Notes under the pieces: model-generated
Seen by the model: only the letters and a program-made list of their open reading frames with translations
What the model was told of the DNA's origin: nothing
Database searches by the model: none
Shown here: positions 3,533 through 59,536 of the stretch, one piece after another
How positions within the stretch are numbered: position 1 is the stretch's first letter
Layout: each line of letters opens with the position of its first letter
IMG/VR virus record: IMGVR_UViG_3300025011_000017
Direction: 5' to 3' (one strand)
DNA length: 64,000 nucleotides
From: a virus
Lineage: Duplodnaviria > Heunggongvirae > Uroviricota > Caudoviricetes
Translations under genes and position numbers: made by a program

Positions 3533-3691
3533 ATGCAAACTAAATCTGTTGATAAATGTATTTGTCCATATTGTGAAGTTATTTTTTATGTTAGCTATTC
3601 TTTATTAGACGAACCGTGTTTAACTTGTCCATCATGCCATAAAGTAATGGGGGTTGATTTTTCAATAGAGTATACTTGTACAACCCTTTAA
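3533..3691 (+). CDS. small Cys4 zinc-ribbon protein (52 aa)
   Basis: CPYC...CLTCPSC; RBS AAAGGAAT; below ORF-track length cutoff. Confidence 0.3.
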   Translation: MQTKSVDKCICPYCEVIFYVSYSLLDEPCLTCPSCHKVMGVDFSIEYTCTTL

Positions 3692-3858
3692 GAAAGTAGG
3701 TAATATATAATTTTTACATGTGAATGTTGCAATATAGCGCATAAAGAAAGTGAAAGATTTAAAAATTTATACACTATAAAATCTAAACTAAGACCATTTG
3801 TAATTATTTGTATAAGTTGTGCTAGAAAAATATTAAAAAGGGATGTGTCTATTTTGTT

Positions 3859-4002
3859 ATGAAGATACCTATAACTGAACCATGTAAAAGATGTGGAGGA
3901 TCTGGGTTTTCTAGATATGGAACTGGTTACAATGCTGTTTGCGATGAGTGTGGAGGAATTGGGGAAACATTAATTGGATGGAAAGAAGATGATAAAAAGT
4001 GA
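3859..4002 (+). CDS. small DnaJ-type CxxCxGxG zinc-finger peptide (47 aa)
   Basis: CKRCGGSGF...CDECGGIGE repeats; weak RBS. Confidence 0.3.
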   Translation: MKIPITEPCKRCGGSGFSRYGTGYNAVCDECGGIGETLIGWKEDDKK

Positions 4003-4191
4003 TGTTTATTATTTGTTATATAATATTTTTAATAATAAGTTTTAATATTATTAAAGATTATTATATAAACTATAATATAATTGACACAATTGATTGCAAA
4101 ATTAAAGTAAGAGATTTAATTATTCTTATAGTTCCTGTTGGAAATTTTATGTTTTATATGTATTTTATGTACAAATTATTTATTAAATGAG

Positions 4192-4371
4192 GAGATGTTT
4201 ATAATACTGAAGTTAATTATTCTATATATTATTATGTTAGTTTTATTTTATGGTTTTTCATGTAATTATGGATTTCATATCAAACCAAATAAACATAAAG
4301 TAATAAGTACACTTATATTTTCTGGACTTATAATTGCAATACCATTATTATCATTGACAAATATACAATAA
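4192..4371 (+). CDS. small hydrophobic membrane protein
   Basis: ATG inside track ORF 4138..4371; shares the 16-nt initiation-region repeat aggagatgtttataat with the gene at 4410. Confidence 0.3.
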   Translation, partial: EMFIILKLIILYIIMLVLFYGFSCNYGFHIKPNKHKVISTLIFSGLIIAIPLLSLTNIQ

Positions 4372-4382
4372 TGTGATATAAT
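4354..4382 (+). promoter_or_regulatory. sigma-A-type promoter family copy (TTGACA-N17-TGaTATAAT)
   Basis: TTGACA 4354-4359; TGaTATAAT with hexamer 4377-4382. Confidence 0.45.
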
Positions 4383-4418
4383 TATAGTAGTATTTTTATA
4401 TAGAAGGAGATGTTTATA

Positions 4419-4589
4419 ATGTCATTATTTGCTAATCAACCTATGATTTGCTGTATATGTGGAAAAGAATTTAATTTTGGTTTTAATTATCATGGTGTTC
4501 CTGCTTGCTCAAATCATTGTTGGGATGAATATCAATGGAGGAGAACGTTATTTATAATGGGAAAAGAGTATATAAAATATAATGATTGA
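4419..4589 (+). CDS. small Cys-rich protein (56 aa)
   Basis: GAAGGAG RBS; CCICGKEF...CSNHC; alternative start ATG 4410. Confidence 0.35.
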   Translation: MSLFANQPMICCICGKEFNFGFNYHGVPACSNHCWDEYQWRRTLFIMGKEYIKYND

Positions 4590-4786
4590 ATTTAGAGATG
4601 ACCTTGAAACTCTTAGATATGTATTAAGTCTTTGTGACCCTAGATATGATTCTGGCGAAGGAATGGTATGTCAATTTTGTGAAGCAACGGAAGGTGAGAC
4701 TCATAAACCTAATTGTATTTACGGAAAATTAACAAATTGGTAATAGAACGTGGATTCTATTACTTATTAAAAGGAGGTAAAAATTA

Positions 4787-5176
4787 ATGTCAAAATGTAA
4801 ACATTGTGGAGAAGAAGTAGATTGGTTTGATTTAGATATTAGTATTTTTGGTCATAAATGCAAGCAAAAATACGACGTAAAAATAAAATCAGATCTAACT
4901 TGTACGGAATGTAATTTTTGCAATGAAACTGTCCGTTTTTATGATGAAAATGGTGTTTCTGATGCTTTTGAACCTAAAAAATACGTATTATGTATTGATT
5001 GCGCAAAGGAAAAATTTCAATCTAAAAAACATACGGAAAAAGAGATTTTAGAGCTTGCAGACCAATTAGCAAAGTCTTGTCGTTACATTATTGAAGGAAA
5101 TGTAATGGGTTTAGGGATATACTTAGAAGTGATGAGAAAAATGTTAATAAATTATAATAACGCTAGAAAAGAATAG
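4787..5176 (+). CDS. Cys-rich zinc-ribbon hypothetical protein
   Basis: Strong RBS AAAAGGAGG; CKHCGEE...CTECNFC...CIDC. Confidence 0.5.
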   Translation: MSKCKHCGEEVDWFDLDISIFGHKCKQKYDVKIKSDLTCTECNFCNETVRFYDENGVSDAFEPKKYVLCIDCAKEKFQSKKHTEKEILELADQLAKSCRYIIEGNVMGLGIYLEVMRKMLINYNNARKE

Positions 5177-5213
5177 AATCGCAATTCTATTACTAAATAA
5201 AGGAGGAGCTTTA

Positions 5214-5438
5214 TTGGCTAATACTGATAAATTCTTAGGAATATTAACGAACGAAGAACTATATGATGCTTTTGAAGAGATTCGTGAGATGAAATTAACT
5301 GGAACTTTAGGAAGCGGTGTAGTAAGAAAAGTATGGAAATCTCTTAACGAATTATTCTCTACTACATTTAGTTTAGATTATGTTTTTCACGAAATAACTT
5401 ATGAAATAGCTAAAAGATGGCATGAAGAAGGATTATAA
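5214..5438 (+). CDS. hypothetical protein
   Basis: TTG start with AAAGGAGGAG RBS; 74 aa. Confidence 0.4.
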   Translation: MANTDKFLGILTNEELYDAFEEIREMKLTGTLGSGVVRKVWKSLNELFSTTFSLDYVFHEITYEIAKRWHEEGL

Positions 5439-5469
5439 AATTATTTTGTATCTGAAAGGAGAAAGTTAT

Positions 5470-5760
5470 ATGTTTGAAGTAAATAAGTTAAGCGATTCTG
5501 AGTTAATAGAAAAAGCTCATGCGACTGATGTGGTTAATATACTAGAATTTGATATTAAGGATATTCCATCTGAAGGATTAGTAGAAAAACCTTATCTTGA
5601 AGAAACTGTAATTGAACTTAAATATAACCCAAATTATGGAGATGATAGAATATGTGTGTGCGGTCATTCTTATTACAGACATTTTGATTCTTATGAAAAT
5701 ATGGATGCCATTGGTTGTAAATATTGTTATGATTGTCGAAATTTTGTTGAAAAAATTTAA
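5470..5760 (+). CDS. hypothetical protein
   Basis: Track 5422..5760; ATG 5470 follows GAAAGGAGAAAG RBS. Confidence 0.4.
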   Translation: MFEVNKLSDSELIEKAHATDVVNILEFDIKDIPSEGLVEKPYLEETVIELKYNPNYGDDRICVCGHSYYRHFDSYENMDAIGCKYCYDCRNFVEKI

Positions 5761-12559: not shown

Positions 12560-13084
12560 ATGAAGTACAAACCAACAATTGTAATAAGTGCGTTCCCTGC
12601 TTGTGGAAAGTCTTATATGTTTAATAACTATAATGGCAAACCATTTACTATGTTAGATAGTGATTCTAGTCAATTTAGTTGGATTAAAGATGTAAATGGA
12701 GAGAATACTAAAGAAAGAGATCCTAATTTCCCTGATAATTATATTAAACATATAAAAGATAATATTGGTAAAGTAGATATTATTTTTGTTAGTAGTCATG
12801 ATATTGTTCGAAAAACATTGAACGATAATGATATCAATTTCTTTATGGTATATCCATCTAAAAGTATGAAAGAGGAATGGATTAGACGTTTTAGGGAAAG
12901 AGGTAATGATGAGAATTTTATAGACTTTATTAGTGATAATTGGGATATTTTTATTGACGATATTCAAAGAGAAAATAAGTGCTTAAAGAAACAATTATCA
13001 GTTAATATTCCTTATATTACTAATGCGTATATTGCGAGTTGTTTTGATACTTGCTACCACTATAAATTTATAGAGGAGTTGTAA
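12560..13084 (+). CDS. P-loop NTPase/kinase-like hypothetical protein
   Basis: Deviant Walker A AFPACGKSY near N-terminus; RBS ACAAGGAG. Confidence 0.4.
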   Translation: MKYKPTIVISAFPACGKSYMFNNYNGKPFTMLDSDSSQFSWIKDVNGENTKERDPNFPDNYIKHIKDNIGKVDIIFVSSHDIVRKTLNDNDINFFMVYPSKSMKEEWIRRFRERGNDENFIDFISDNWDIFIDDIQRENKCLKKQLSVNIPYITNAYIASCFDTCYHYKFIEEL

Positions 13085-13086
13085 AG

Positions 13087-14412
13087 ATGGAAAAAATATA
13101 TTCTATTCTTAAAGAGATACAAGAAACATCAAGTAGAAATCAAAAAGAAAAAATATTAAAAAATAATTCTGAAAATCAATTACTTAAAGATATATTAAAA
13201 TTTGTATTTTCTCTTGAAGTAAAAACGGGAATTAAGCGTAAAAAATTAGAAAAAGAAGTTACGTCTGACCAACTAGTTGATATTGAAGGGTTTTATGGAC
13301 TTAGAGAATATATTATTAATAATGGAACTGGATCTGATAAAGTTATTGCCAACATACAGAAATTTTTATCTGAACAAACAGAAGATTTAAAAGATTTATA
13401 CACACGTATTATTCTTCAAGACTTACGATGTAATCTGAGTGAAAAAACTATCAATAGTGCTTTTGGATATGAATTTATATATATCCATAAATTAGAGAAA
13501 GGAGAAGTAGCAGAACCAAAACATCTTAAATTACTTGAAGAAAAAGAATTTGGTATATATAAAAAAATAGATGGATATAGAGCAGAGATTGTAGTAGGAT
13601 ATGACAAGATTAAAATAATGTCATCTGGAGGTGAATTATATAAAGAATTAATTGACATTGAAAGAGCGTTTTTAGATGCTAATTTACCTAAAGGAGTATT
13701 TGCATGTGAATTGTTAGCAATTGATCCTTCGGGACAAATGACACGAATGGAAATATTTAATAAAACTGGATCTATATTACGGAGAGATGGAATAAAAGTT
13801 GGAATTGAAGTTAATGTATTTAATTTTATTCCTGACGATGGATTTTTTAAGGGAGAGCATCCATTTTCTTGTCGTAGAAGAAAGGAATTAGCGAAACAAT
13901 TAGTTGATAAAATTAATTCTCCGTTTGTAAAAAATATTGATCCTCTATATATCGGAAAAGATTTGTCTCAAATTGATTATTGGTTTGAGAAGATGATTTT
14001 AGCTGAAGATGAAGGAATAATGGTTTTACCTCTAGATCAAAGGTATGTTGGGAAAAAATCGTATACACAAATGTTGAAGATTAAAACTGAAAATGAGTGC
14101 GACATTCGCGTAATTGGTTTTGAAAAAGGAGCTAAAGGTAAGGAGTTTGAGAATACTTTAGGAACTTTAATTTGTGACTTTAAGGGAAATCCAATTAGAG
14201 TAATGTGTGGATATAAAATAAAATATAACTCAAATAAATATGATGATCGAATGGTTAGGGATTATATTTGGACTCATCAAGAAGAACTGTTAGATAAAAT
14301 CGTGAAGGTGCGTTATATGGATATCTCCATAAACGACAGTGGTGGAACAGACTTGAGAATGGCAAGACTTATTGAATATCGTGATGATAAATCAGAATCA
14401 TCATATAACTAG
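13087..14412 (+). CDS. lig: ATP-dependent DNA ligase
   Basis: Motif I KKIDGYRAEI (KxDGxR), motif III FACELLAID, motif IV EGIMVLP, motif V MLKIK. Confidence 0.8.
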   Translation: MEKIYSILKEIQETSSRNQKEKILKNNSENQLLKDILKFVFSLEVKTGIKRKKLEKEVTSDQLVDIEGFYGLREYIINNGTGSDKVIANIQKFLSEQTEDLKDLYTRIILQDLRCNLSEKTINSAFGYEFIYIHKLEKGEVAEPKHLKLLEEKEFGIYKKIDGYRAEIVVGYDKIKIMSSGGELYKELIDIERAFLDANLPKGVFACELLAIDPSGQMTRMEIFNKTGSILRRDGIKVGIEVNVFNFIPDDGFFKGEHPFSCRRRKELAKQLVDKINSPFVKNIDPLYIGKDLSQIDYWFEKMILAEDEGIMVLPLDQRYVGKKSYTQMLKIKTENECDIRVIGFEKGAKGKEFENTLGTLICDFKGNPIRVMCGYKIKYNSNKYDDRMVRDYIWTHQEELLDKIVKVRYMDISINDSGGTDLRMARLIEYRDDKSESSYN

Positions 14413-14426
14413 AAAGGACGATATGA

Positions 14427-15203
14427 TTGAGAAAAGATTTAGCAAGCAATCAACTGAGTAAAATCGGCGAGATATGCGACCTGAACGGAAATATAATAGA
14501 GATTATCGAGTATTTAAGTACACATTGCGTAACCGTCAAATTTGAAGATGGTTACACAAATACAGGATCGTATAAAAGTTTCAAAAAAGGAGAGATAAGA
14601 AACCCAAATCCATACTTAAAAAGGTTTTATGGGGTTGGATATTTAGGAGAGGGAAACTATAAAACCTCTATAAATGGAGAAAAAACTCCACAATATTTAA
14701 AATGGTTTGCCATTTTCGTTAGGTGTTACAGCGAAAACCTTGCCTTAAAAGAACCAACATATGCAAACTGTGAAATATGTGAAGATTGGCATAACTTTCA
14801 AAATTTTGCAAAATGGTATGATGAAAATTATTACAGCATTGACGGCAGGGTAATGGAGTTAGATAAAGATATACTGGTAAAGGGAAATAAATTATATAGT
14901 CCTGACAATTGCGTATTCGTATCTAATGATATTAATAGTTTGTTTACTAAGCGTAAGAATAAACGAGGAGATTATCCATTAGGAGTATCTAGGAATGAAG
15001 GATGTGATAGTTACAAATCGCAATGCAACAATGAAGGGAAAAGAGTATATCTAGGGAGTTACAGCACACCTCAACAGGCATTTTTAGTATATAAAACATT
15101 TAAAGAACAGGTCATTAAAAAAACTGCTGATAAATATATTAATCAGATACCTAAAAGGTTGTATGATGCATTATATGCATATCAAGTAGAAATGAACGAC
15201 TGA
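14427..15203 (+). CDS. HNH/AP2-domain homing endonuclease
   Basis: AP2-like RNEGCDSYKSQCNNEGKRVYLGSYSTPQQAF; free-standing gene between ligase and a remnant of the ligase 3' end. Confidence 0.6.
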   Translation: MRKDLASNQLSKIGEICDLNGNIIEIIEYLSTHCVTVKFEDGYTNTGSYKSFKKGEIRNPNPYLKRFYGVGYLGEGNYKTSINGEKTPQYLKWFAIFVRCYSENLALKEPTYANCEICEDWHNFQNFAKWYDENYYSIDGRVMELDKDILVKGNKLYSPDNCVFVSNDINSLFTKRKNKRGDYPLGVSRNEGCDSYKSQCNNEGKRVYLGSYSTPQQAFLVYKTFKEQVIKKTADKYINQIPKRLYDALYAYQVEMND

Positions 15204-15216
15204 ACAGGTAAGTGAT

Positions 15217-15291
15217 AATGGTGAAATTGATTTAAGAATAGCTAGATTAGTTTGTTATAGAGATGATAAGATAATTGAAAGCTATAATTAA
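15217..15291 (+). pseudogene. remnant or duplicate of the ligase 3' end (NGEIDLRIARLVCYRDDKIIESYN*)
   Basis: 24-codon frame about 65% identical to ligase C-terminus SGGTDLRMARLIEYRDDKSESSYN*; lies immediately after the HNH gene. Confidence 0.55.
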
Positions 15292-15304
15292 GAAAGGATG
15301 AATA

Positions 15305-15760
15305 ATAATAATTAAAATAGTTGATGGAGATATTTTACAAGCATCGGAAAAACTGGTGGTGCATCAGGTTAACTGTATGGGAGTTATGGGTGGTGGCATC
15401 GCATTACAAATTAGAAATCAGCTTCCTAAAGTTTACAATGAATATAAAAGATTATGTAGTAATACTGATCCAAAACAATTATTAGGAACAATTCAATGCG
15501 TAGAAGATGATTTTGGCAGAGTATTTGTTAATTTATTCGGACAATTAAATTATGGTAGAGATAAACAATATACTGATTATGTGGCTTTAAGAAGAGGTTT
15601 GTTAAATGTTTATAATATAGCAAATCAGTATAATGTGTCAGTTGCAATTCCATTTAATATTGGTTGCGGTCTTGCGGGTGGAGATTGGAATGAAGTTTAT
15701 AAAATGATAGAAGAAATTTTCGGAGATTATGATGTAACTTTATATAGATTGGAAGTATAG
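15305..15760 (+). CDS. Macro domain protein (ADP-ribose binding/hydrolase)
   Basis: VDGDILQASEKLVVHQVNCMGVMGGGIALQI matches macro GDIT...VNAAN...GGGV motifs; conserved N-terminus lies upstream of the first canonical start (GTG 15356); start near 15305-15311 (ATA/ATT) or ATG 15298 with +1 shift in an (AAT)4 run. Confidence 0.6.
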   Translation: MIIKIVDGDILQASEKLVVHQVNCMGVMGGGIALQIRNQLPKVYNEYKRLCSNTDPKQLLGTIQCVEDDFGRVFVNLFGQLNYGRDKQYTDYVALRRGLLNVYNIANQYNVSVAIPFNIGCGLAGGDWNEVYKMIEEIFGDYDVTLYRLEV

Positions 15761-15773
15761 AAAGGAGTAACAA

Positions 15774-15941
15774 GTGGATAATAATGTTATAGGATCGTTA
15801 TATTTAGTTAAAGTTGATTCAAATGAAAATAATAATAAATATTACAAAATGATTCCAAATGGCAATGGTACATTTACAACTCAAAATGGAAGAATTGGAG
15901 TAGATCATTTTCAAACCACTACTTATCCTATTAGCAGATGA
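15774..15941 (+). CDS. WGR-domain N-terminal fragment of PARP-like protein (terminated by in-frame TGA)
   Basis: GTG with AAAGGAG RBS; NKYYKMIPNGNGTFTTQNGRIG (WGR core); remainder of WGR (KLKRKGY) continues in the same frame after TGA 15939-15941. Confidence 0.55.
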   Translation: MDNNVIGSLYLVKVDSNENNNKYYKMIPNGNGTFTTQNGRIGVDHFQTTTYPISR

Positions 15942-15962
15942 AATGAAAAATTAAATGAAAAA

Positions 15963-16988
15963 TTGAAGAGAAAAGGATACACAGACCAAACTAGATTAGT
16001 TGCAGAAATTACATCTTCTTCTAAAAATAAAGAATATTTAGATATTGAAAATTCTTCTATCTCAGCAATTGTCGCAAGATTACAAGCTATGGCTAAACAA
16101 GCTATTGCAGACAACTATACAATATCTTCAAATAAAGTAACTCAGACAATGATAGATGAAGCTCAAATAACATTAAATAATTTAATGACAGCAGATTCAA
16201 TCGAAGCGTTTAACAAAATATTAGTTGAGTTATTTCAAATTATTCCTCGTAAAATGAAAAAAGTAAAAGATAATTTAGCTAAAATAGATAAAGATTTTGG
16301 AGAAATTATTCAAAAAGAACAAGATTTGCTTGATGTGATGAAGGGTCAGGTGGTTATTACATCTGTACAAGATGAAACTGAGCAAGAAATAGTTAATAAT
16401 CAAACTATATTAGACGCTTTAGGATTAAGATTTGAAGAGATTACACAAGAAGAAGAGAGGATGATTAAGAGAGAACTTGAGGATATTAGCAATAGATATT
16501 ATCAAGCATGGAAAGTGATTAATATTAGAACTCAGGAGAGATTTAATAAATTTATTATCAATGAAAAAATTGAAGACAACAGGTTATTATTTCATGGTAC
16601 TCGTTCAGAGAACGTATGGAGTATAATTAACTCTGGATTAGTTTTAAGACCTTCCGCTAAAATTACAGGAAAAATGTTTGGATATGGAATTTATTTTGCT
16701 CCAAAAGCCCAAAAATCATTAGGATATACGTCTATTTCAGGGTCTAGATGGTCTAAAGGAAACGATAAAACTGGATTTATGGCATTATTTGACGTTGCTT
16801 ATGGAAAACCATACGATGTACACTCATTTGATAATAAGTATTATAAGTTTAACTATGAAGAATTGCAAAAAGCTAGTAAGGGTAGTAATTGTTTACATGC
16901 ACACAAAGGCAAGATGTTATTTAATGATGAGATCATAGTATACAAAGAAAATCAAATGACCATAAAGTATTTGATAGAATTAAAATAA
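15963..16988 (+). CDS. PARP-like ADP-ribosyltransferase catalytic region (helical domain + ART; H-Y-E triad present)
   Basis: [39 protein letters not shown] close to PARP1 [48 protein letters not shown] matches the catalytic-Glu motif; same frame as the WGR ORF. Confidence 0.75.
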   Translation: [341 protein letters not shown]

Positions 16989-17002
16989 AATAAAGGAGAG
17001 GC

Positions 17003-18019
17003 TTGAAAGTGAAAAATTTAAATTGGTACGAAAATATACCTGTTATGATTAACAATCATGGTGATCCATTAACAGATAATCAAATAGAAAGCACGATACA
17101 CAAAATTAGATCATTAATAGGGTGTAATAATGTGGTGGGGATTTGCACAAAAGCAGTACCAAATGAGAATGCATATCAACAACTTAAACAAATAGCAAAT
17201 ATAAAAGATATAAAATTATTTATGGCGTACTCTTTGACAGGATTAAATGAAGGAAATTATAGTTTTGAAGAAAGAGAAGAAGCCATAATGAGATTATATG
17301 ATATGTTTGGTCAAATGAATATAATGTTCAGGCCACTTATAAAGGGTAGAAATGATTCACATGAAAATATCGAGCGCATTGTGGATGTTGCCGCCAAAAC
17401 TGGTAACAATATAATTTTGGGTGGATTGCATAACAAAAAATTATTAAAGCAGTTGAAAAACGACAGCAAAGATTATTTTATTGATTGTTGCAATGCTAAT
17501 GGAGTAAGATACTTTAATAAAACATCTTGCGTTGTAGCATATCAATACAATACACCTTGTAAGGTTCATGATATTGTGGGTAATAAGCCAAAGAATTTAG
17601 ATATTATTGATAAGCTTGGATATAAATATTCATTATACAATGGTCATATACTATTAGATTGGGCATCGTCAGGAGATATGAACTTTGTAAGGCATATAAC
17701 AGAGTCTCTGCCATATACCAAAAAATTAATATCTAGATTAAATAAAATATCGTCTAATGAAAACCATAATTATGAATTAACTTCTGGTTGGTTATCTTGG
17801 AGCAATAATGCAGATTGTCCTATAAAATGTGATTATTGCGTCATATCATTAATAGACTATTTAGCTGATAAGACTCCCGTGGGATGTCATCCAAAAGATT
17901 TGCAAAATATAACAATTAGTAATATTTTTAGTGGTGATGCGGTAGATATAATGGCAAAGGATAGATATATTTCATATAATGATTACAGAGTTCCACAAGA
18001 TTGCATAAAATATAAATAA
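17003..18019 (+). CDS. hypothetical protein (338 aa)
   Basis: RBS AAAGGAGAGG; start TTG 17003 or GTG 17009. Confidence 0.5.
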   Translation: MKVKNLNWYENIPVMINNHGDPLTDNQIESTIHKIRSLIGCNNVVGICTKAVPNENAYQQLKQIANIKDIKLFMAYSLTGLNEGNYSFEEREEAIMRLYDMFGQMNIMFRPLIKGRNDSHENIERIVDVAAKTGNNIILGGLHNKKLLKQLKNDSKDYFIDCCNANGVRYFNKTSCVVAYQYNTPCKVHDIVGNKPKNLDIIDKLGYKYSLYNGHILLDWASSGDMNFVRHITESLPYTKKLISRLNKISSNENHNYELTSGWLSWSNNADCPIKCDYCVISLIDYLADKTPVGCHPKDLQNITISNIFSGDAVDIMAKDRYISYNDYRVPQDCIKYK

Positions 18020-18034
18020 AGGAGAGATTTATTA

Positions 18035-18340
18035 ATGATTAATCAAGCACAACAAACAGAGGTAAAAGATATCGTCTATAAAAAAGGTAGACAAAAATAT
18101 TCAGAAAGAACTAATTTACTTCCCAATCATGTAAAAGATGGTTCATTTACAATTAAAGAGAAGAAAGAGCGTATTATTCATTCGAATAACAGAACCATTG
18201 TAATTCTTAACGATGGCACAAAAGGTATTGCTAAATGTATGCCAACCGACACCTACGACAAACTTAAAGGAGTTAAAATTGCATATCTTCGAGCAAAAAT
18301 TGAATCGCTTCAAAAAGAACTTCAGGAACTTTGTAAATAA
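18035..18340 (+). CDS. hypothetical protein; paralog of the gene at 48012
   Basis: C-terminal ILNDGTKGIAKCMPTDTYDKLKGVKIAYLRAKI vs ILDDGSKGVAKLNPKDTYNGEIGYGVAYFRAKI. Confidence 0.5.
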   Translation: MINQAQQTEVKDIVYKKGRQKYSERTNLLPNHVKDGSFTIKEKKERIIHSNNRTIVILNDGTKGIAKCMPTDTYDKLKGVKIAYLRAKIESLQKELQELCK

Positions 18341-18343
18341 GGG

Positions 18344-18372
18344 TTGACAAGTAGAAAGTAATGTAGTAAACT
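18344..18372 (+). promoter_or_regulatory. promoter family copy
   Basis: TTGACA 18344-18349; TAAACT 18367-18372. Confidence 0.4.
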
Positions 18373-18507
18373 TAAAGAGTAGTAAGTAGTAAATATTTAC
18401 TACTCAATTATATAATGAGGAGGAGAAATAATTTAAACTGTAATACCTGAGAGTCATAGAGATATATTGCCAGATAATGCAGAATTTATAAAAGGAGGAT
18501 TAATTTA

Positions 18508-18726
18508 ATGTTTGTTAAATGTATCAAAGATGCTGTGATGGAAGATGAAAATGGAGAAATTTGTTTTTTAGGAAATAAAATTTACGAAGCAAAAGAACTT
18601 AAACACTGTGAATTAATGATAATAGACGAACAAGGATACGAGCATATTGTTTCTAATGAAGAAGGAGATATGTTTTTAGATGAATATTTTATATTAAATG
18701 TGGAGGTAGATAAAAATGAAGGTTAA
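18508..18726 (+). CDS. hypothetical protein
   Basis: RBS AAAAGGAGG; promoter at 18344. Confidence 0.45.
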   Translation: MFVKCIKDAVMEDENGEICFLGNKIYEAKELKHCELMIIDEQGYEHIVSNEEGDMFLDEYFILNVEVDKNEG

Positions 18727-21693: not shown

Positions 21694-22014
21694 ATGATAA
21701 ATATTTTTATGGATGACATGCGACCCTCTCCAGAAGGATTTATATTAGTCAAAAATGCTTCCGAGTGTCGTTTAGTAACTAGGTATAATAAGATCAAAAC
21801 AATGTCACTAGACCATGATTTAGGGGAAAAAGAAACGGGATATGATTTTTGTAAGTGGTTAGTAGAAGTAGGTATTGAAGATCCAAGTATTTATCCTGAA
21901 GAAATATATCTTCATACTGCTAACGGAGTAGGTAGAGATAATATGTATCAACTCTTAATGAGATATAAACCAAATTATGTTAAGGTGCATCGTTCACCAA
22001 TACCATTTGAATAG
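21694..22014 (+). CDS. hypothetical protein
   Basis: TAAATG coupling; 106 aa. Confidence 0.45.
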   Translation: MINIFMDDMRPSPEGFILVKNASECRLVTRYNKIKTMSLDHDLGEKETGYDFCKWLVEVGIEDPSIYPEEIYLHTANGVGRDNMYQLLMRYKPNYVKVHRSPIPFE

Positions 22015-22025
22015 GAGGAAATAGT

Positions 22026-22775
22026 ATGAGAAATATAGCATTTAAATGTCTTTCAGGATCTTGGAGATATAATTTACAAACAGATAATTCTGATAAAGAT
22101 TATAAAGTATTTGTTCTTCCTACATTCGAAGACTTATATAATAAAATAACTTATGCTGAAAGTTTTATAGGAAAGTTTATAGATTTAGATTGTCATGATA
22201 TTAGAAAAATTGTTGATTTATATTGGAAGTCCAATATTGATTATATTCAAACATTATATTCTAACGAAATTGAATTTTCTGGAATACCTGAAATAGATAA
22301 AAGAATAAAGGAATTATTTTCTTTAAGAAGCGAAATAGTCACAATGAATCTTCCTCATTTATATTCAGCGTGTCATGGAATGCATTTAAATAAAATGAAG
22401 GATTTAACTAAAGGGACAGAGAATACTATTTACCTAGTTAAAAAATATGGGTATGATACAAAAATGGGCTTACATGCATACAGAATGTTAGATTTTATTA
22501 AAAGATTTTTAAATACTAATTTTAAGGATTTTAATAAATCTGTAATGTATGATGAATTAGAGCGAGAAGCAATGCTTAAAATTAAAAATGGATTTTACAC
22601 TCTTGAAGAATATAGAGATATTATTTATGTAGAATATCAACAATTTAGGAAATATGAAGAGATATATAAATCACAACCAGTTAATGAAGAACTTAAAGAA
22701 TGGATTAGTGAATTAATATATCTAATTGTAAGGGATTATATCAAAATTTATATGAATAGGAGATATTCTGCATGA
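22026..22775 (+). CDS. Pol-beta superfamily nucleotidyltransferase-like protein
   Basis: GSWRYNLQTDNSDKDY fits GS...[DE]h[DE]h NTase motif. Confidence 0.4.
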   Translation: MRNIAFKCLSGSWRYNLQTDNSDKDYKVFVLPTFEDLYNKITYAESFIGKFIDLDCHDIRKIVDLYWKSNIDYIQTLYSNEIEFSGIPEIDKRIKELFSLRSEIVTMNLPHLYSACHGMHLNKMKDLTKGTENTIYLVKKYGYDTKMGLHAYRMLDFIKRFLNTNFKDFNKSVMYDELEREAMLKIKNGFYTLEEYRDIIYVEYQQFRKYEEIYKSQPVNEELKEWISELIYLIVRDYIKIYMNRRYSA

Positions 22776-27199: not shown

Positions 27200-28912
27200 A
27201 TGAAATGTGATCCGATGTTTTGGGCAGATTTTTACAAAATTAGTCACTATTTGATGGGAGAAAAGGGTACGGAAAAACTTTATTCCACGTTTACACCACG
27301 ACATTCTAGAATAGAGGGAATTAATGAAGTAGTATTTTTTGGACTCCAAGGCTTCATTAAAGATTATATCATAGAGCAGTTTAACGTAGGATTTTTTAAA
27401 GTAAAAAAATCAAAAGTAATAAAAAGATATAAACGTCTTATATCATGTACTTTAGGAGATGGTTGTGCTGACTCTTCCCATATTGAAGCATTACATGATC
27501 TTGGGTATCTTCCTATTAGAATTAAGGCTGTCAAAGAAGGAACTTTGATTCCTATGAGAGTACCTGTATTTACAATTGAAAGTACAGATGAAAATTTTTA
27601 TTGGTTGCCTCTGTTTATGGAAACATTTATAAGTGCAAATATATGGAAAGTAATCACTTCTACAACTATTGTTAAAAAATACAGGGATATTTGTGAAAAA
27701 TGGTCAGAAAAAACATGTGATGATAGGTCGCATATTCAATGGCAATGTCATAATTTTAGTTATCGTGGAATGTCGGGAAATGAAGACGCTACTACTACAG
27801 GAGCAGGACATCTATTATATTTCACGGGTACAGATACGATTCCTTCTATTCTATATTTAGAAGATTATTATGGAACCAATGTAGAAAAAGAGCTTGTAGG
27901 AGCGTCAGTTCTTGCTACTGAGCATAGTATCCAATGTGGATATCAAGATGATATGAGATATTTTAAGAGAATGATTACAGAGGTTGCTCCAAATGGCATA
28001 GTTTCTGTTGTCGCAGATGGATATGATTATTGGAATTTCATTGGTAATATTGTTCCTGCTTTAAAAGAAGATATTATGAATAGAGATGGGAAGGCTGTAA
28101 TTCGTCCTGATTCTGGTTCGCCAATTAAAATCATTTGTGGGACAGTAATTGTTGAAAGTTTAACTAATCAAAATTATTGTGAAACATTAGAAAAATGTAA
28201 GACATGGATGCTAGATGGAATTAAAGAAGAAGTAAGAGTTGAAACTCCTCATGGAGAATATGGCGATTCCGAAGTAACTAGATACTTTAAATTTGACAAT
28301 AAAATATATAAAATCGTTGTTGAATTTGATTGGAATAGATACGATAAACAATATTATTATATGGATGGTAGTCGTGTAATAAGTTGTGATGAAATAGAAT
28401 TAACTATTGAACAAAAAGGTTCGGTAGAAGCATTATGGGATACGTTTGGAGGTACTGTTAATAGTAAGGGATATAAAGTATTAGATAGTCATGTGGGATT
28501 AATATATGGCGATTCAATTACTCCTGAATATGCAGAAGAAATTCTTAAACAACTAGAAGAAAAAGGTTTTGCAAGTTCGAATATTGTTTTTGGAGTGGGG
28601 TCTTATTCATTAGGATACTACACAAGAGATACCTTTGCGTTTGCTATGAAGGCGACTTACACCGTAATTAATGGAGAAGAGAGATTCATATTTAAAGATC
28701 CTAAAACAGATAATGGAATTAAAAAATCTCAAAGAGGTATGGTTGTAGTTCTACAAGATCTTGATACTGGTGAAATTTATTTTAAAGATGGATTAAATGC
28801 TGAAGAAAGAGATAATTATAAAGAATATGATTTACTTGAAGATGTTTTCGTTGACGGAAAAATGGTAAGGGAACAAACTTTGGCAGAAATAAGAGCAATC
28901 GTCTTAAAGTAA
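27200..28912 (+). CDS. nicotinamide phosphoribosyltransferase family protein (Nampt/Namat-like)
   Basis: Collinear with human NAMPT motifs: FWADFYKISHY / LPIRIKAVKEGTLIP / HNFSYRGMSGNEDATTTGAGHLLYFTGTDT / IRPDSGSP. Confidence 0.85.
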   Translation: MKCDPMFWADFYKISHYLMGEKGTEKLYSTFTPRHSRIEGINEVVFFGLQGFIKDYIIEQFNVGFFKVKKSKVIKRYKRLISCTLGDGCADSSHIEALHDLGYLPIRIKAVKEGTLIPMRVPVFTIESTDENFYWLPLFMETFISANIWKVITSTTIVKKYRDICEKWSEKTCDDRSHIQWQCHNFSYRGMSGNEDATTTGAGHLLYFTGTDTIPSILYLEDYYGTNVEKELVGASVLATEHSIQCGYQDDMRYFKRMITEVAPNGIVSVVADGYDYWNFIGNIVPALKEDIMNRDGKAVIRPDSGSPIKIICGTVIVESLTNQNYCETLEKCKTWMLDGIKEEVRVETPHGEYGDSEVTRYFKFDNKIYKIVVEFDWNRYDKQYYYMDGSRVISCDEIELTIEQKGSVEALWDTFGGTVNSKGYKVLDSHVGLIYGDSITPEYAEEILKQLEEKGFASSNIVFGVGSYSLGYYTRDTFAFAMKATYTVINGEERFIFKDPKTDNGIKKSQRGMVVVLQDLDTGEIYFKDGLNAEERDNYKEYDLLEDVFVDGKMVREQTLAEIRAIVLK

Positions 28913-54039: not shown

Positions 54040-54357
54040 TTGGCTGTAAAAAAAGTTAAAAGTGAAAATTTACTCAACAAGAAAAGTACAAAAAAAAAGA
54101 AAATCACTATTACTACTACTATAAAATTAAACAATACTACCGTAAAGAGGAAATCTAAACCAAAGAATGTAAGTCCTTTAATAGAAAACGGTAAATCATA
54201 TTGTCCAATTTGTAAAAAACAAGAATGTACCATGTTGGATTATGGCTTTAGGGATGAGGATGAACATTGGTTTAAATGGTTATGTAAGCCGTGCAATGTA
54301 ACATTTGAAGTAAAAAAGTTTATTAATGATAACTCAGAGTTTATCATAAGGGAATGA
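54040..54357 (+). CDS. Lys-rich protein with C-terminal Cys4 zinc ribbon
   Basis: TTG after AAGAGAGG; CPICKK...CKPCN. Confidence 0.4.
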   Translation: MAVKKVKSENLLNKKSTKKKKITITTTIKLNNTTVKRKSKPKNVSPLIENGKSYCPICKKQECTMLDYGFRDEDEHWFKWLCKPCNVTFEVKKFINDNSEFIIRE

Positions 54358-54896
54358 TGATAAGTATTAAAAAGGTTTTAATTTATGGTGCAGAATGTAC
54401 AGGGAAATCAACTTTAGCCGAACAATTGGCTAAACATTTTAAGACAGTTTTTATTCCAGATCCTAGAAGGCTATATATTAAAAAAAATGATTATTGTTTT
54501 ATATATAATGATTTAAAAAAAATTGCTCAAATTCATGTAAAAACACAGCAAAAAGCTGAAAAAAAAGCAAATAAAATATATTTTATTGATACTGATGCAA
54601 TTACTTTATCGATTTATAGCGAATCTTATTTTCAAAATATTGATCCTGAATTCGAAAAAATTATCAATAAACAAAATTATGATCTAATACTTTTTACTCA
54701 TTCTAATATACCTTGGGTAGAAGACCATATGAGAGATTATGGAGACGCAAATAAACGTAAAGAACTTCATAAAACATTTAAAGATGAGTTGAAAAAAAGA
54801 GGGTTAAAGTATGTTGACATAAAAAGTAAATTTTGGGATAAAAGATTAGATACTGCTATAAATGCAGTAAATAAACTTTTATTAGAGGGTGATTAA
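54354..54896 (+). CDS. AAA_28/NadR-type kinase-like P-loop protein (possible nicotinamide riboside kinase)
   Basis: IYGAECTGKSTLAEQLAKHF...IYFIDTDAITL parallels NadR RNK domain GGESSGKS...IAFIDTD. Confidence 0.45.
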   Translation: MMISIKKVLIYGAECTGKSTLAEQLAKHFKTVFIPDPRRLYIKKNDYCFIYNDLKKIAQIHVKTQQKAEKKANKIYFIDTDAITLSIYSESYFQNIDPEFEKIINKQNYDLILFTHSNIPWVEDHMRDYGDANKRKELHKTFKDELKKRGLKYVDIKSKFWDKRLDTAINAVNKLLLEGD

Positions 54897-55444
54897 TGAT
54901 ATTGAGATTGGGTGTAATTGGCTCTAGGAGTTTCAATGATTATAAGTTGTTATGTAATACGCTTCAAGAATATAAGCATTATAAACTTGAAATTGTAAGT
55001 GGTGGAGCAAAGGGAGCAGATAGTTTAGCCAAGCGATATGCTGAAGAAAATCTGCTTCCATATAAAGAATTTTTACCAGATTGGGATTCATTTGGAAAAC
55101 AAGCGGGGTTTATTAGAAATGCAGACATTATAGCTAATAGTGATGAAGTGGTGGCCTTTTGGGATAAAAAAAGTAGTGGAACCGCAAATAGTATTCATCT
55201 TGCAGGTAAAAAAGGAATACCAGTTAAAATTATTCATTTTGAAGAAGAAAAGCTTATTAAATCAAATAAAGAATTATTCAATGCATGGAAAAATTTAGCC
55301 GAAACAATAGGCTGGATAGGTGGAATAGTTCAAAATGACTATTTGGCCTCAAAGGAAGATGTTTTAGGATGGATTCAATTAGTTAATAACTCGTTTGCTA
55401 AATTCAAAGAATTAGCTTCAAAAACTAGAGAATATATAAAATAA
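54896..55444 (+). CDS. DUF2493/YspA-type SLOG-family Rossmann protein
   Basis: GVIGSRSF...IVSGGAKGADSLAKRYA matches GsR...GGArGAD signature. Confidence 0.5.
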   Translation: MILRLGVIGSRSFNDYKLLCNTLQEYKHYKLEIVSGGAKGADSLAKRYAEENLLPYKEFLPDWDSFGKQAGFIRNADIIANSDEVVAFWDKKSSGTANSIHLAGKKGIPVKIIHFEEEKLIKSNKELFNAWKNLAETIGWIGGIVQNDYLASKEDVLGWIQLVNNSFAKFKELASKTREYIK

Positions 55445-55454
55445 GGAGAAATAA

Positions 55455-55718
55455 ATGGAATTAAACGAAGATATTGTTATGGTAATGATTATTACCTCTC
55501 AACTTATAGATACTGGAAAAACTCACGGACAAATAAAATCTCTTTTTGATGGTAAATTTCAACAATTTATTAAACTTACAGATGAGATGGATAAAGATCC
55601 TCTAATGGCTGAAAAAGTTGATTTAATGCTTATAAAAATGTTTTCTGATTCTTTAAGTAGAATTGAATTTGAAGAAAATAATATTGTTATAAAGGAGGAT
55701 AAAAATGAAGATCAGTAA
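55455..55718 (+). CDS. hypothetical protein
   Basis: RBS ATAAGGAG; 87 aa. Confidence 0.4.
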   Translation: MELNEDIVMVMIITSQLIDTGKTHGQIKSLFDGKFQQFIKLTDEMDKDPLMAEKVDLMLIKMFSDSLSRIEFEENNIVIKEDKNEDQ

Positions 55719-55941
55719 AGACATGATAACTTTAATAGCTCTTTTGACTCTGGCAGATGATATGGGGTTTGATGATAATAAAGCAAATGAAATTATAGGA
55801 AAAGATAGAATAGATAAAATTGATAATTTGTTTTCTAAAATATTTAATGATTCAAATAGTGAATATGATGAATATATATTAAATTTATCATTTAATATGA
55901 TTAAAGATATTATTGATAAGATTGATACTGATAATAAATAA
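55705..55941 (+). CDS. hypothetical protein
   Basis: RBS AAGGAGG; 78 aa. Confidence 0.4.
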   Translation: MKISKDMITLIALLTLADDMGFDDNKANEIIGKDRIDKIDNLFSKIFNDSNSEYDEYILNLSFNMIKDIIDKIDTDNK

Positions 55942-55954
55942 GGAGAATAATAAA

Positions 55955-56854
55955 ATGGAACAAAAGAAATATACTGATGTTATACGTCTTGGTCACAAAA
56001 CAACAGTAGGAGTATTAACAAAAGGCGACAATATAATAATTCAAGAGAAGATTGACGGTTCGAATGCAGGATTCAGAAGAGTTGGCGATAAACTTATCGC
56101 TTACTCTCGTAACAATGAATTACACGAAGGATTGACTCTTAATGGGTTTTATCAATTTGTTCAATCTCTAAATCCACAAATTTTTGTAGAAGGTTATATT
56201 TATTTTGGAGAATGGCTTCGTGCAAAACACAAAATAGATTATTCAAAACGAACAGCAGATTTTTATATGTTTGATTTATACGATGTGGATAATGAATGTT
56301 ATTGTGATTATACAGATGCTAAATTTGTGGCTGAATTAATTGGATTAACCTTTGTACCCATTTTTTATGAAGGAGAATACATTGATTTTGAACATCTTAT
56401 GTCTTTTGTAGGTAAATCAGATATTGCAGAACATGGTGAAGGAATTGTAGTTAAAAATACAAATTATCGTAATCAATATGGTAATCAAATTTATGTTAAA
56501 TTAGTTACAGAAGAATTTGCAGAAACACAGAAACAAAAACTTCCAAAAGATCCTACTGGATATGGTTTAAATAAATTTGTGGCAGAATTTCTAACTCCTG
56601 CAAGAGTAGAAAAATTTATGTACAAATTAGTAGATGAACAATTTATTCCTGAAGATTATGGAATTGAACTTATGGGAACTATCCTAAAAGAACTTGGATC
56701 AAGAATATATGATGATCTTCTTAAAGAAGAGTCTGATAATCTTTCAGAAGAAGATTCTGATGAAAAAGATATTAAAAAGTCTATTGGAAAAGTTTTACCT
56801 TTACTTGTTAAATCAATTGTGTTAGAAAATCAAAAGAATTATCAACAAGTATAA
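55955..56854 (+). CDS. Rnl2-like RNA ligase family nucleotidyltransferase
   Basis: Motif I EKIDGSNAGF, III YIYFGEWL, IV HGEGIVVKN, V YVKLV; ATG 55955 after ATAAGGAG (track 55913). Confidence 0.55.
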   Translation: MEQKKYTDVIRLGHKTTVGVLTKGDNIIIQEKIDGSNAGFRRVGDKLIAYSRNNELHEGLTLNGFYQFVQSLNPQIFVEGYIYFGEWLRAKHKIDYSKRTADFYMFDLYDVDNECYCDYTDAKFVAELIGLTFVPIFYEGEYIDFEHLMSFVGKSDIAEHGEGIVVKNTNYRNQYGNQIYVKLVTEEFAETQKQKLPKDPTGYGLNKFVAEFLTPARVEKFMYKLVDEQFIPEDYGIELMGTILKELGSRIYDDLLKEESDNLSEEDSDEKDIKKSIGKVLPLLVKSIVLENQKNYQQV

Positions 56855-58984: not shown

Positions 58985-59536
58985 ATGATAAAATTAAACA
59001 CTTTTTGGGATATGGATAATACAATCACACGTTTTAATGAAAAGTTAGATGAATTATATCCTAAAGTATATGGTACTCCTAGACCAGATGACCCTACCGT
59101 ATATAAAGTATGTGATAACTCTCGCTCAATATTTAAAACTGAAGGGTTTTTCGAGTCACTTATTCCGTTTTATAATGCTCTAGCTATTATGGAATATTTA
59201 CATGATACAGGTCATGTTGTGCATATTATTACTAGTCCAATGGGAATGGGTTCTGTAGCTAAAGAAAAATACGATTGGTTAAGTAGATATCTTCCTTGGT
59301 TAGATAGAGATAATATTTTTATGACAGGACGCAAAGATTTAGTTGGAGATACAAATTCTATATTAATTGATGACGCGCCTAAATTTTTATCAACTTGGAA
59401 AGGAATCACTATTGGAATTGACGCTCCTTATAATCAAGATACCGTTACTGACTATCGTATTTATGACAATAATTACAATTTTCTTTATGGTATATTTCAA
59501 AGTTTAGCTTATGGAGACTTGACAAGTGTAAAATAA
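58985..59536 (+). CDS. HAD-family 5'(3')-deoxyribonucleotidase-like
   Basis: N-terminal DMDNTI (DxDxT); TAAATG coupling. Confidence 0.5.
   Translation: MIKLNTFWDMDNTITRFNEKLDELYPKVYGTPRPDDPTVYKVCDNSRSIFKTEGFFESLIPFYNALAIMEYLHDTGHVVHIITSPMGMGSVAKEKYDWLSRYLPWLDRDNIFMTGRKDLVGDTNSILIDDAPKFLSTWKGITIGIDAPYNQDTVTDYRIYDNNYNFLYGIFQSLAYGDLTSVK

Follow-up and report, generated by a model that had tools for sequence, protein, structure and literature searches.

A premature TGA at a conserved tryptophan codon in the WGR-PARP gene of a phage macrodomain/PARP module

The locus

The window analysed here is a stretch of 64,000 nucleotides (64 kb) from the ~183-kb genome of a large tailed phage from groundwater, of the class Caudoviricetes (IMG/VR record IMGVR_UViG_3300025011_000017). 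The genome is AT-rich (29.5% GC), and TGA is a minority stop codon in it. A megablast search against GenBank phages returned no near-identical cultured phage. NAD+ salvage (NAMPT) is encoded in the same genome.

On the plus strand of the window, an ATP-dependent DNA ligase gene (13087–14412; Pfam DNA_ligase_A_M, 7.9e-9), whose place just upstream of the module is conserved in related phages, is followed by a gene for a free-standing HNH homing-type endonuclease with a TGA stop (14427–15203; phrog_953 HNH endonuclease, 6.2e-65), a macrodomain gene (15308–15760), and a WGR-PARP gene that begins at GTG 15774. The order ligase, macrodomain, WGR-PARP is also found in three related loci (L088, L127, and L131), where the macrodomain gene lies directly 3' of the ligase gene and the HNH gene has no counterpart between them. 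A promoter and terminator scan of positions 12900–18600 gave 45 promoter-like sites against 36 expected and is uninformative in DNA of this AT content.

The macrodomain and WGR-PARP genes are a copy of a widespread two-gene module that occurs in large Bacillota-type phages and in some bacterial genomes. Judged by its domains, the module would specify a small macrodomain ADP-ribose hydrolase followed by a single ~404-aa polypeptide with WGR, helical, and PARP regions. Homologues of the WGR-PARP protein number 3,549, and among the matches listed almost all are 397–421 aa long and have WGR and PARP together; phrog_23333 is one protein spanning residues 10–404, and the macrodomain gene is usually found directly 5' of the WGR-PARP homologue. 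An earlier note on this DNA, made from the sequence alone, had proposed that a eukaryote-type PARP is paired here with a macrodomain as writer and eraser of ADP-ribosylation. The pairing is real but not new, such a PARP beside a macrodomain being annotated already in cultured phages, and the roles of writer and eraser are those that the domains would predict.

The macrodomain gene and its start codon

The translation of 15305–15760, assigned to a macrodomain in the earlier note, does match Pfam Macro (PF01661; E 6.6e-8, 33 bits against a cut-off of 22) and phrog_335 (4.6e-46), and it is 85% identical to an intact 151-aa homologue (P0125), with residues 2–36 fully identical. Among solved structures it is matched best in sequence, with values of 1.9e-13 to 3e-7, by 5m3i (1.9e-13), 6lfu (7e-11), 5m31, and 5e3b. 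We take these to be the DarG antitoxin (5m3i and 5m31), yeast Poa1p (6lfu), and S. coelicolor SCO6735 (5e3b), whose macrodomains presumably belong to the TARG1/ALC1-like clade. The phage macrodomain and these structures have the nucleotide-binding loop NC-x-GVMG-x-GIA in common; within it the phage protein reads MGGGIA, as does 6lfu, in contrast to MGKGIA in 5m3i. The phage protein shares the fold clade of TARG1 and DarG but not the lysine of the MGKGIA loop; because this lysine, which we assume to be the catalytic residue of DarG and TARG1, is glycine here, a lysine mechanism of the TARG1/DarG type appears unlikely in the phage macrodomain.

What the gene lacks is a canonical start codon at its 5' end. 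A Shine-Dalgarno sequence, GAAAGGA, is present at 15292–15298, and in relatives the motif AAGAAAGGA likewise stands 8–9 nt 5' of the macrodomain start; where that start codon would fall (15308–15310), the window has ATA. The frame is open from 15302, and an in-frame TGA at 15299–15301 excludes any start farther upstream. The aligned start is ATG in L004, L011, L006, and L127, TTG in L078, L005, and L020, and GTG in L088 and L131, while L035 has ATT together with an in-frame ATG upstream. Neither of the next canonical starts, GTG 15356 and ATG 15377, is preceded by a Shine-Dalgarno sequence in the scan, and initiation at either would delete an N-terminal segment that is conserved in relatives. 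Initiation at ATA in E. coli amounts to ~0.1–3% of that at ATG (bioRxiv 10.1101/063800), and in Listeria an ATA start leaves translation reduced yet detectable (PMC13068326). The ATA at 15308 may allow similarly weak expression of the macrodomain.

The WGR-PARP gene

A Shine-Dalgarno sequence, AAAGGAG (15760–15766), lies 7 nt 5' of GTG 15774. From this GTG, as the earlier note had it, 55 codons (15774–15938) encode the first half of a WGR domain (Pfam WGR, E 2e-5, model positions 2–42 of 79) and are closed by TGA at 15939–15941, beyond which the same frame continues without a shift to TAA at 16986–16988. With Trp put at the stop, the match to Pfam WGR (PF05406) grows to model positions 3–75 of 79; the fragment scores 25 bits and the joined sequence 23.6 bits, the cut-off being 22. 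An AlphaFold model of the Trp-restored protein, used only to place Trp56 (mean pLDDT 55.5, with block means of ~27–49 in the catalytic domain), has strands at residues 9–13, 22–28, 33–40, and 46–52 and a helix at residues 53–66, with block-mean pLDDT of 75–89 over residues 11–70. The first 55 codons would accordingly hold the four WGR beta-strands, with Trp56 at the start of the WGR alpha-helix.

The WGR domain is here neither on one polypeptide nor equipped with an aromatic-Gly-Arg motif, the TGA standing between strand 4 and the helix and the motif reading N-G-R. In the alignment of homologues, AAT (Asn38, 15885–15887) occupies the aromatic position of the Y/W-G-R motif, which is Y in 96, F in 19, W in 2, and N in none of 117 homologues. 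Work on bacterial PARPs connects this motif with their DNA-dependent activity (PMC5966428), and Asn38 suggests real damage to the WGR domain.

The rest of the gene (15942–16988) encodes the end of the WGR domain, the helical region, and the PARP catalytic domain. Pfam PARP (PF00644) matches with an E value of 3.3e-24 (85.9 bits against a cut-off of 26.7) over model positions 21–198 of 199, and the catalytic fragments of PARP1 and PARP2 match this part at 4e-12. The motifs LLFHGT, GIYFA, and NDEIIVY align with LLWHGS, GIYFA, and YNEYIVY of human PARP1, which we take to be the motifs of His862, Tyr896, and Glu988. The H-Y-E triad is intact, as had been claimed, at His274 (16593–16595), Tyr307 (16692–16694), and Glu386 (16929–16931), and these three residues are invariant across the WGR-PARP family. 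Pfam PARP_reg has no match in the joined protein; phmmer alignments to PARP1 and PARP2 chains reach back to residues 75–155, and the AlphaFold model predicts helices between residues 94 and 263 with only moderate or low confidence.

WGR-PARPs of bacteria and phages share one architecture, in which WGR (mostly 'YGR') is N-terminal, the middle helical, and the PARP catalytic domain, with its H-Y-E, C-terminal; among them are the Clostridioides difficile CD160 PARP, the Herpetosiphon aurantiacus PARP, and the annotated PARPs of Cellulophaga phage phi4:1, Klebsiella phage vB_KpM_FBKp34, and Xanthomonas phage XacN1. The joined protein is 24–32% identical to WGR-PARPs of cultured phages over at least 96% of its length, and 60–73% identical to hundreds of metagenomic phage proteins. 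Unlike the known WGR-PARPs, the copy in the window has TGA at Trp56 and Asn in place of the motif aromatic. The literature searched held no biochemical study of a member of the close clade.

Origin of the in-frame TGA

Codon 56 is TGG in 106, TAT in three, and TTT in two of 111 relatives and a stop in none (0/111), the count being made up of IMG/VR relatives (76 TGG, 2 TAT, and 1 TTT) and GTDB genomes (30 TGG, 1 TTT, and 1 TAT); across 117 aligned proteins, position 56 is W in 116 and F in one. Since the codon is near-invariant TGG in relatives, the TGA at 15939–15941 is, on the alignment, the product of a single G-to-A change. None of the 111 relatives spanning codon 56 is interrupted there, each being read through in one frame, and separate, conserved WGR-only and PARP-only genes, the arrangement that the earlier note had set against its own reading of one interrupted gene, are absent among them.

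Apart from its lesions the gene is well preserved. The joined protein deviates at one of 118 highly conserved and one of 174 class-conserved columns, a count that is usual for the family and gives no signal of long-term relaxed selection; over residues 73–404 there are no deviations in 149 class-conserved columns. With the coding sequence otherwise intact, the lesion is therefore recent or tolerated. Other interruptions among the relatives are confined to L067, a single contig with a nonsense change of TGG to TGA at position 273 (in LLWHG), and L088, which has a -1 frameshift in a T-run of the WGR domain. One short protein of the family (P0056) is a real frameshift allele of another phage; another (P0104) comes from a 1.2-kb contig. 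Breakage of the WGR-PARP gene thus recurs among relatives, which is what one would expect if the gene is accessory and dispensable.

The TGA is present in DNA 100.000% identical to the window on the contigs L001 (21,026 nt), L002, and L003, and the flanking loci L084–L087 are 100% identical to the window as well. Identical TGA-bearing DNA was assembled independently from SRR1658467 and SRR3309324 and occurs in ENA assembly ERZ27254726, the assemblies with the TGA stemming from at least three sequencing runs; the 341-aa product of the frame downstream of the stop is recorded on nine contigs (three from JGI and six from ENA). The TGA is a real allele, found in every assembly of a clonal phage, and neither a sequencing error nor a code reassignment. 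Contigs from different samples were compared over 21 kb, 13.7 kb, and 11.5 kb; they are 100.000% identical and hold no population signal for dating the mutation, and because all available copies of the phage are identical, neither the age of the TGA nor selection on it is measurable. One candidate for an intact close relative, the 404-aa protein P0122, was rejected; its DNA has the same TGA, and the protein is a code-4 gene call.

A probable recent null or leaky allele

We consider that the window probably carries a known accessory gene in a recent allele that is null or strongly hypomorphic (leaky), with no new recoding mechanism involved. Nonsense mutation or pseudogenisation was one of three options offered by the earlier note, and it is the one best supported, by the TGG of 106 of the 111 relatives and by a second lesion in the macrodomain start. 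The conserved TGG of Trp56 would have become TGA through a G-to-A change in the PARP gene, and the macrodomain start, now ATA where relatives have ATG, GTG, or TTG, would likewise be a single G-to-A change away from ATG. A third lesion would be Asn38, which replaces the aromatic residue in Y/W-G-R. The macrodomain ATA and the Asn had both been overlooked in the earlier note.

The allele would be null or strongly hypomorphic because most ribosomes are expected to terminate at codon 56, releasing a 55-aa fragment without the WGR helix, and because the downstream ORF lacks its own ribosome-binding site. We infer that some full-length enzyme may still be made through near-cognate decoding of UGA by tRNA-Trp, roughly at the per-cent level or below, and such misreading would restore the exact ancestral residue. 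Of the bacterial stop codons TGA leaks most, and the residue inserted is mainly Trp (PMC11126739); Lovett et al. 1991, as cited in PMC2704378, report leaky UGA read as Trp in B. subtilis. The proposed allele would resemble the leaky UGA alleles of E. coli reporters and, by that citation, of B. subtilis in having a premature UGA under the standard code, for which those systems insert mainly Trp at a per-cent level; unlike them, it has its readthrough from analogy, and its UGA is followed by A. The lack of decay outside the lesions would be expected as much of a very recent null allele as of a leaky allele that is being maintained.

Alternative explanations

It is possible, though in our judgement unlikely, that the TGA and the ATA were co-selected as leaky 'dimmer' mutations and have been kept as they lower a costly or toxic, NAD+-consuming writer/eraser pair to ~1% expression. 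Wild-type full-length PARP would then be supplied through readthrough by tRNA-Trp, and this leaky expression would serve a function without being programmed. Each partner gene has one of the two lesions, and both belong to the mildest class, which is leaky; the residue that readthrough of TGA mainly inserts, Trp, is the ancestral one, and the remaining 348 codons are undamaged at the 149 conserved columns. Moreover, the two independent nonsense alleles of the family, in the window lineage and in L067, are both TGG to TGA, a change that accounts for 2–8% of random nonsense mutations in these genes (at most 14–16% if only GC-to-AT transitions are counted). The joint chance of ~0.0005–0.02 is that of a sample of two nonsense alleles, one of which (L067) comes from a single contig, and it is a hint that tolerance favours alleles which readthrough can rescue. 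Against such selection, neither lesion is conserved in any relative, persistence over time finds no support in a clonal lineage, and Asn38 in the YGR motif suggests that the WGR domain is truly damaged.

The phage may alternatively have discarded the DNA-sensing WGR domain and make a helical and catalytic protein of 341 aa by termination and reinitiation at TTG 15963–15965, the first in-frame start after the TGA and the start chosen by gene callers. This we regard as improbable. The TTG is 21 nt past the stop and the remainder of the protein is intact, but no Shine-Dalgarno sequence was found in the scan of the 20 nt upstream of it (ATGAAAAATTAAATGAAAAA), whereas a 5-mer of that sequence precedes 57 of 70 long ORFs and GTG 15774 has AAAGGAG. 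Asn38 and the stop at codon 56 both fall among the 25 conserved WGR columns of 174, for which the post hoc probability is ~0.02, and L088, a second phage from the same site, is also broken in the WGR domain and has an intact downstream ORF of 355 aa that starts in an ATGA overlap. By analogy with PARP1, however, a helical and catalytic fragment without WGR should be auto-inhibited, which would count against its use by the phage. Catalytic-domain-only PARPs do exist in bacteria (PMC4245714); a conserved two-gene arrangement of this family is found in no relative.

Very little likelihood attaches to dedicated recoding, in which the TGA would be read as Trp through a phage suppressor tRNA or in a host where TGA means Trp, as an incipient reassignment regulating the gene. 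The residue expected at the stop is indeed Trp, and an AT-rich genome with TGA as minority stop is the starting state proposed for phage recoding, as summarised in bioRxiv 10.1101/2021.08.26.457843. Against this stand 195 TGG codons and one in-frame TGA in the 17,239 codons of the window; on the coding strand, the WGR-PARP gene is the one place where a single TGA parts two stretches of the same frame that are each 40 codons or longer. As the earlier note had maintained, TGA is a genuine stop elsewhere: ten plus-strand ORFs end in it, four of them in an ATGA overlap with the ATG of the next gene, including the ORFs that end at 22775 and at 58298 (thyX). Codes 4 and 25 were rejected on the codon counts and these overlaps.

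The search for a suppressor tRNA that the earlier note had recommended covered the 64-kb window with 10 kb to its left and 9.5 kb to its right (~19.5 kb of flanks; L084 and L085). These 83.5 kb of the ~183-kb genome contain no tRNA of any kind, anticodon UCA included, and the only tRNAs near the module in 80 related loci are tRNA-Ile(TAT) and tRNA-Gln(TTG), neither of them a suppressor. No RNA structure was found after the TGA (minimum free energy -7.1 kcal/mol, z = +1.42, with 186 of 200 shuffled sequences folding at least as well), and the window has no Rfam match. Programmed readthrough, another of the options in the earlier note, has no positive support, because the stop is unconserved, no structure follows it, no suppressor tRNA occurs in the 83.5 kb, and the downstream ORF is without a ribosome-binding site. 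The recoded phages outlined by Borges et al. (TAG to Gln or TGA to Trp) are similar in being AT-rich and in having in-frame TGA at Trp positions; in that outline they have many in-frame stops in late genes together with suppressor tRNAs, in contrast to the single TGA in 64 kb, the genuine TGA stops, and the tRNA-free 83.5 kb seen here.

A sequencing or assembly error, the third option in the earlier note, is scarcely credible: the TGA differs from the ancestral TGG by one base, but it recurs in the SRR1658467, SRR3309324, and ERZ27254726 assemblies and on the JGI contigs. Selenocysteine, for which TGA is the codon, is effectively refuted as the residue inserted, the aligned residue being Trp, Tyr, or Phe and never Cys, with no hairpin 3' of the TGA and no Rfam SECIS match.

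Implications

For annotation, the locus is a caution on two counts: gene callers split the gene into a 'WGR' and a 'PARP' protein, and code-4 translation on short contigs has put a spurious intact protein into public databases. If the two leaky lesions were indeed selected together, the recurrent change of TGG to TGA in the window lineage and in L067 would reflect selection for alleles rescuable by readthrough, and the locus would be a neat natural case of expression tuned by a nonsense codon at a Trp position. It would show a simple way in which the expression of toxic accessory genes could be tuned during phage evolution, and possibly a first step toward TGA-to-Trp recoding in AT-rich phages. 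The damaged copy of the module in the window adds little on the writer/eraser family itself. Macrodomain and WGR-PARP genes nevertheless form a large clade of phage genes for which the literature searched gave no experimental characterisation, and the family is a reasonable target for studying how phages manipulate host NAD+ and ADP-ribosylation.

Organization of the macrodomain–PARP module

The window (29.5 per cent GC, standard bacterial code) is coding along nearly all of its plus strand, with TAA as the main stop codon. On that strand, a macrodomain open reading frame (ORF; 15302–15760; Pfam Macro, E = 6.6e-8) precedes a poly(ADP-ribose) polymerase (PARP) gene that starts at GTG 15774, behind a strong Shine–Dalgarno (SD) sequence, AAAGGAG. 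Its first 55 codons encode half of a WGR domain (Pfam WGR, E = 2e-5) and end at TGA 15939–15941; beyond it, a further 348 codons in frame, closed by TAA 16988, encode a PARP catalytic domain (E = 3.3e-24). Nowhere else on the coding strand of the window (64 kb) does a lone TGA divide two stretches of 40 or more codons in one frame, and substituting Trp at the TGA lengthens the WGR match to model positions 3–75 of 79. The best matches among solved structures are PARP1 and PARP2 catalytic fragments (E = 4e-12), and in the alignment LLFHGT, GIYFA, and NDEIIVY pair with the PARP1 motifs presumed to hold His862, Tyr896, and Glu988. The earlier note's description, of a macrodomain, a WGR half, and a same-frame core of PARP type, is thereby confirmed.

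By homology, the two proteins would act as ADP-ribosylation ‘writer’ and ‘eraser’. The solved structures closest to the macrodomain are 5m3i and 5m31, which we take to be DarG macrodomains, and 6lfu, presumably that of Poa1p. In the alignment with 5m3i, Gly stands in place of the Lys of MGKGIA, the catalytic residue in DarG and TARG1, and a substrate is therefore not assignable.

Macrodomain and PARP form an established phage gene pair, in which PARP is encoded as a single gene. Phage PARPs have been noted since 2014 (PMC4245714; also PMC7824862), and the bacterial layout is a WGR (mostly ‘YGR’) domain, a helical region, and a catalytic domain (PMC5966428; PMC8120803). One protein family, phrog_23333, matches the WGR-PARP protein end to end (residues 10–404). 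Homologues annotated as poly(ADP-ribose) polymerase (24–32 per cent identity over at least 96 per cent of the length) occur in cultured phages, namely Cellulophaga phi4:1 and phi17:2 and phages of Klebsiella, Xanthomonas, and Stenotrophomonas. Searched against about 5.8 billion protein clusters, the protein has 3,549 homologues; among the matches listed, nearly all have 397–421 aa with WGR and PARP domains, and no relative above about 73 per cent identity occurs in the databases searched. Most GTDB relatives are from Bacillota, including Clostridia, and their contigs often measure 150–170 kb. The macrodomain gene lies directly 5′ of the PARP match, with a gap of 6–51 nt, in 32 of the 33 IMG/VR loci with a tblastn-detected macrodomain, and other phages of the same site share the order DNA ligase, macrodomain, WGR-PARP.

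In one clade (loci L030, L031, L032, L037, and L082, at about 3560–5500), another macrodomain type with the motif LAHCISGDYALGAGIA, which we take to be TARG1-like, precedes the PARP gene, so the eraser partner varies between clades. Upstream of it, these five loci carry tRNA-Ile(TAT) and one or two tRNA-Gln(TTG) genes.

A derived stop codon in a probably damaged module

An alignment of homologues, suggested in the earlier note, found no stop at codon 56 in any of 111 relatives. The codon is TGG in 106 of them: 76 of 79 in IMG/VR (TAT in two, TTT in one) and 30 of 32 in GTDB (TTT and TAT in one each); among 117 aligned proteins, residue 56 is Trp in 116 and Phe in one. The TGA thus derives from an ancestral TGG by one G-to-A transition. 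An AlphaFold model is confident in the WGR part only (block-mean pLDDT 75–89, residues 11–70), where Trp56 begins the helix (residues 53–66), past four beta-strands; termination there would, on this model, release a 55-aa sheet fragment without the WGR helix.

The macrodomain gene is altered as well. At its start-codon position, the window has ATA (15308–15310), with an in-frame TGA three codons upstream; relatives have ATG (L004, L011, L006, L127), TTG (L078, L005, L020), or GTG (L088, L131), and L035 has ATT with an in-frame ATG upstream. The closest homologue (85 per cent identity) starts with ATG and shares residues 2–36 exactly, so the N-terminal segment belongs to the protein, and an internal GTG and ATG, which also lack an SD sequence, are not plausible starts. 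Initiation at ATA reaches about 0.1–3 per cent of ATG in Escherichia coli (bioRxiv 10.1101/063800) and gives reduced levels in Listeria (PMC13068326). Between the DNA ligase and macrodomain genes lies a free-standing HNH endonuclease gene (14427–15203; phrog_953, 6e-65), absent from L088, L127, and L131, where the macrodomain gene directly follows the ligase; it has the appearance of an inserted homing-endonuclease gene, just 5′ of the altered start region.

In PARP, Asn occupies residue 38, where the Y/W-G-R motif has its aromatic residue (Tyr, Phe, or Trp in 117 of 117 homologues). Otherwise, the Trp-restored protein deviates in 118 highly conserved columns solely by S276T, within the normal range for the family, and past residue 72 in none of 149 class-conserved columns.

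Relatives carry disruptions of their own. In L067 (IMGVR_UViG_3300045988_156620), distant from the window, an independent TGG-to-TGA change at position 6796 affects the Trp beside the catalytic His (LLWHG), where five relatives 97–99 per cent identical to L067 keep TGG. A different phage from the same sample (L088, 2263–3482; ENA ERZ27254726 k141_21943; protein 74 per cent identical) has lost 1 nt from a T-run in the WGR domain (TTTT to TTT relative to L035), and the frameshift splits the gene into a 51-aa WGR ORF and a 355-aa PARP ORF joined by an ATGA overlap. Three independent disruptions among about 115 loci fit a dispensable accessory gene.

Of the three options in the earlier note, a nonsense mutation is best supported; the allele is real and its ancestral codon was TGG. 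We consider it probable that the window holds a recent, lineage-specific nonsense mutation in a known accessory module whose macrodomain gene has also lost its start codon, leaving a null or strongly hypomorphic state. Residual full-length PARP, if any, would come from unprogrammed near-cognate readthrough.

Alternative explanations

Leaky attenuation of both partners, kept by selection, is an unlikely but not negligible alternative. TGA is the leakiest stop codon and mostly read as Trp (E. coli reporter and proteome data, PMC11126739), and TGA is reported to be read as Trp in Bacillus subtilis (Lovett et al. 1991, as cited in PMC2704378). Both nonsense alleles, in the window and L067, are TGG to TGA, a change expected to make up only 2–8 per cent of random nonsense mutations in these genes, or 14–16 per cent were GC-to-AT transitions the only ones to occur; these two cases, one from a single contig, are weak evidence that nonsense alleles which tRNA-Trp readthrough can rescue are more readily tolerated. 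Contigs of the phage from different runs and assemblies (L001 and L084–L087) are without exception 100.000 per cent identical to the window over all 46 kb compared; either the population is unusually clonal or the assemblies share template DNA. Because the phage is clonal across samples, its contigs carry no signal on mutation age or selection.

We give little credence to reinitiation at TTG 15963, the first in-frame start past the TGA, as the source of an enzyme without the WGR domain. The sole point in its favour is that both coding lesions lie in that domain (post hoc p ~0.02). An SD sequence precedes 57 of 70 long ORFs and GTG 15774, and none precedes TTG 15963; the locus has therefore kept the translation signals of its single-gene ancestor.

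The evidence speaks against both a code change and programmed recoding. Plus-strand ORFs contain 195 TGG in 17,239 codons against one in-frame TGA and, as the earlier note held, TGA is a genuine stop elsewhere: it closes ten ORFs, four of them through an ATGA in which the stop overlaps the ATG of the following gene, as for thyX and the gene that precedes DNA polymerase III alpha. The search for a suppressor tRNA found no tRNA genes in the window plus about 19.5 kb of flanks, out of a 183 kb contig, and a dedicated suppressor, or a host reading code 4, is very improbable. Programmed readthrough, another option of the note, has no support: the stop is not conserved, the 121 nt around and after it do not fold more stably than shuffled sequences (z = +1.42), and the window has no Rfam match.

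Sequencing error, the remaining option, is scarcely credible, being ruled out by the identical TGA in separate assemblies. The 341-aa product is recorded on three JGI and six ENA contigs; a 21,026-nt ENA contig stretch (ERZ27254726) and two Logan contigs from SRR3309324 and SRR1658467 are 100.000 per cent identical to the window, TGA included, and contigs over its ends (SRR1658468, SAMN03203000, SAMN03203001, JGI 3300001041) are also 100 per cent identical. The source metagenome is groundwater (PRJNA268031). A 404-aa database entry (P0122) was rejected as an intact protein: its own DNA (Logan contigs L002 and L003) has the TGA and gives no table 11 translation. Evidently the gene was called with code 4 on a short AT-rich contig, which gave Trp at codon 56, and this database artefact could mislead homology-based checks. 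Selenocysteine at the TGA is a negligible possibility.

Neighbouring genes

Directly 3′ of PARP, a 338-aa Cys-rich gene (17003–18019) has no Pfam or PHROG match; in L127 and L131, another ORF, of about 100 aa, follows PARP. One gene encodes a nicotinamide phosphoribosyltransferase (27200–28912; phrog_448, 2e-188), and another, some 5 kb before the first base of the window (5422–5922 of L085), encodes a small CTP_transf_like protein, possibly NMNAT; the two resemble an NAD+ salvage set, in a genome that also has an NAD+-consuming PARP. Genes linked to NAD/ADP-ribose and RNA repair (cREC_REC, RlaP, a YAcAr/SLOG-type protein, and RNA ligase) and HNH_3 and NT5C genes occupy 21694–22775, 54354–56854, and 57573–60309. 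The NT5C gene is flanked by two HNH_3 endonuclease genes between thyX and DNA polymerase III alpha, a region in which mobile endonucleases are abundant.

Significance

The locus points to a large phage PARP/macrodomain clade for which we found no experimental characterization in the literature searched. It is itself a damaged member of a known family, of modest interest and mainly a caveat for annotation.
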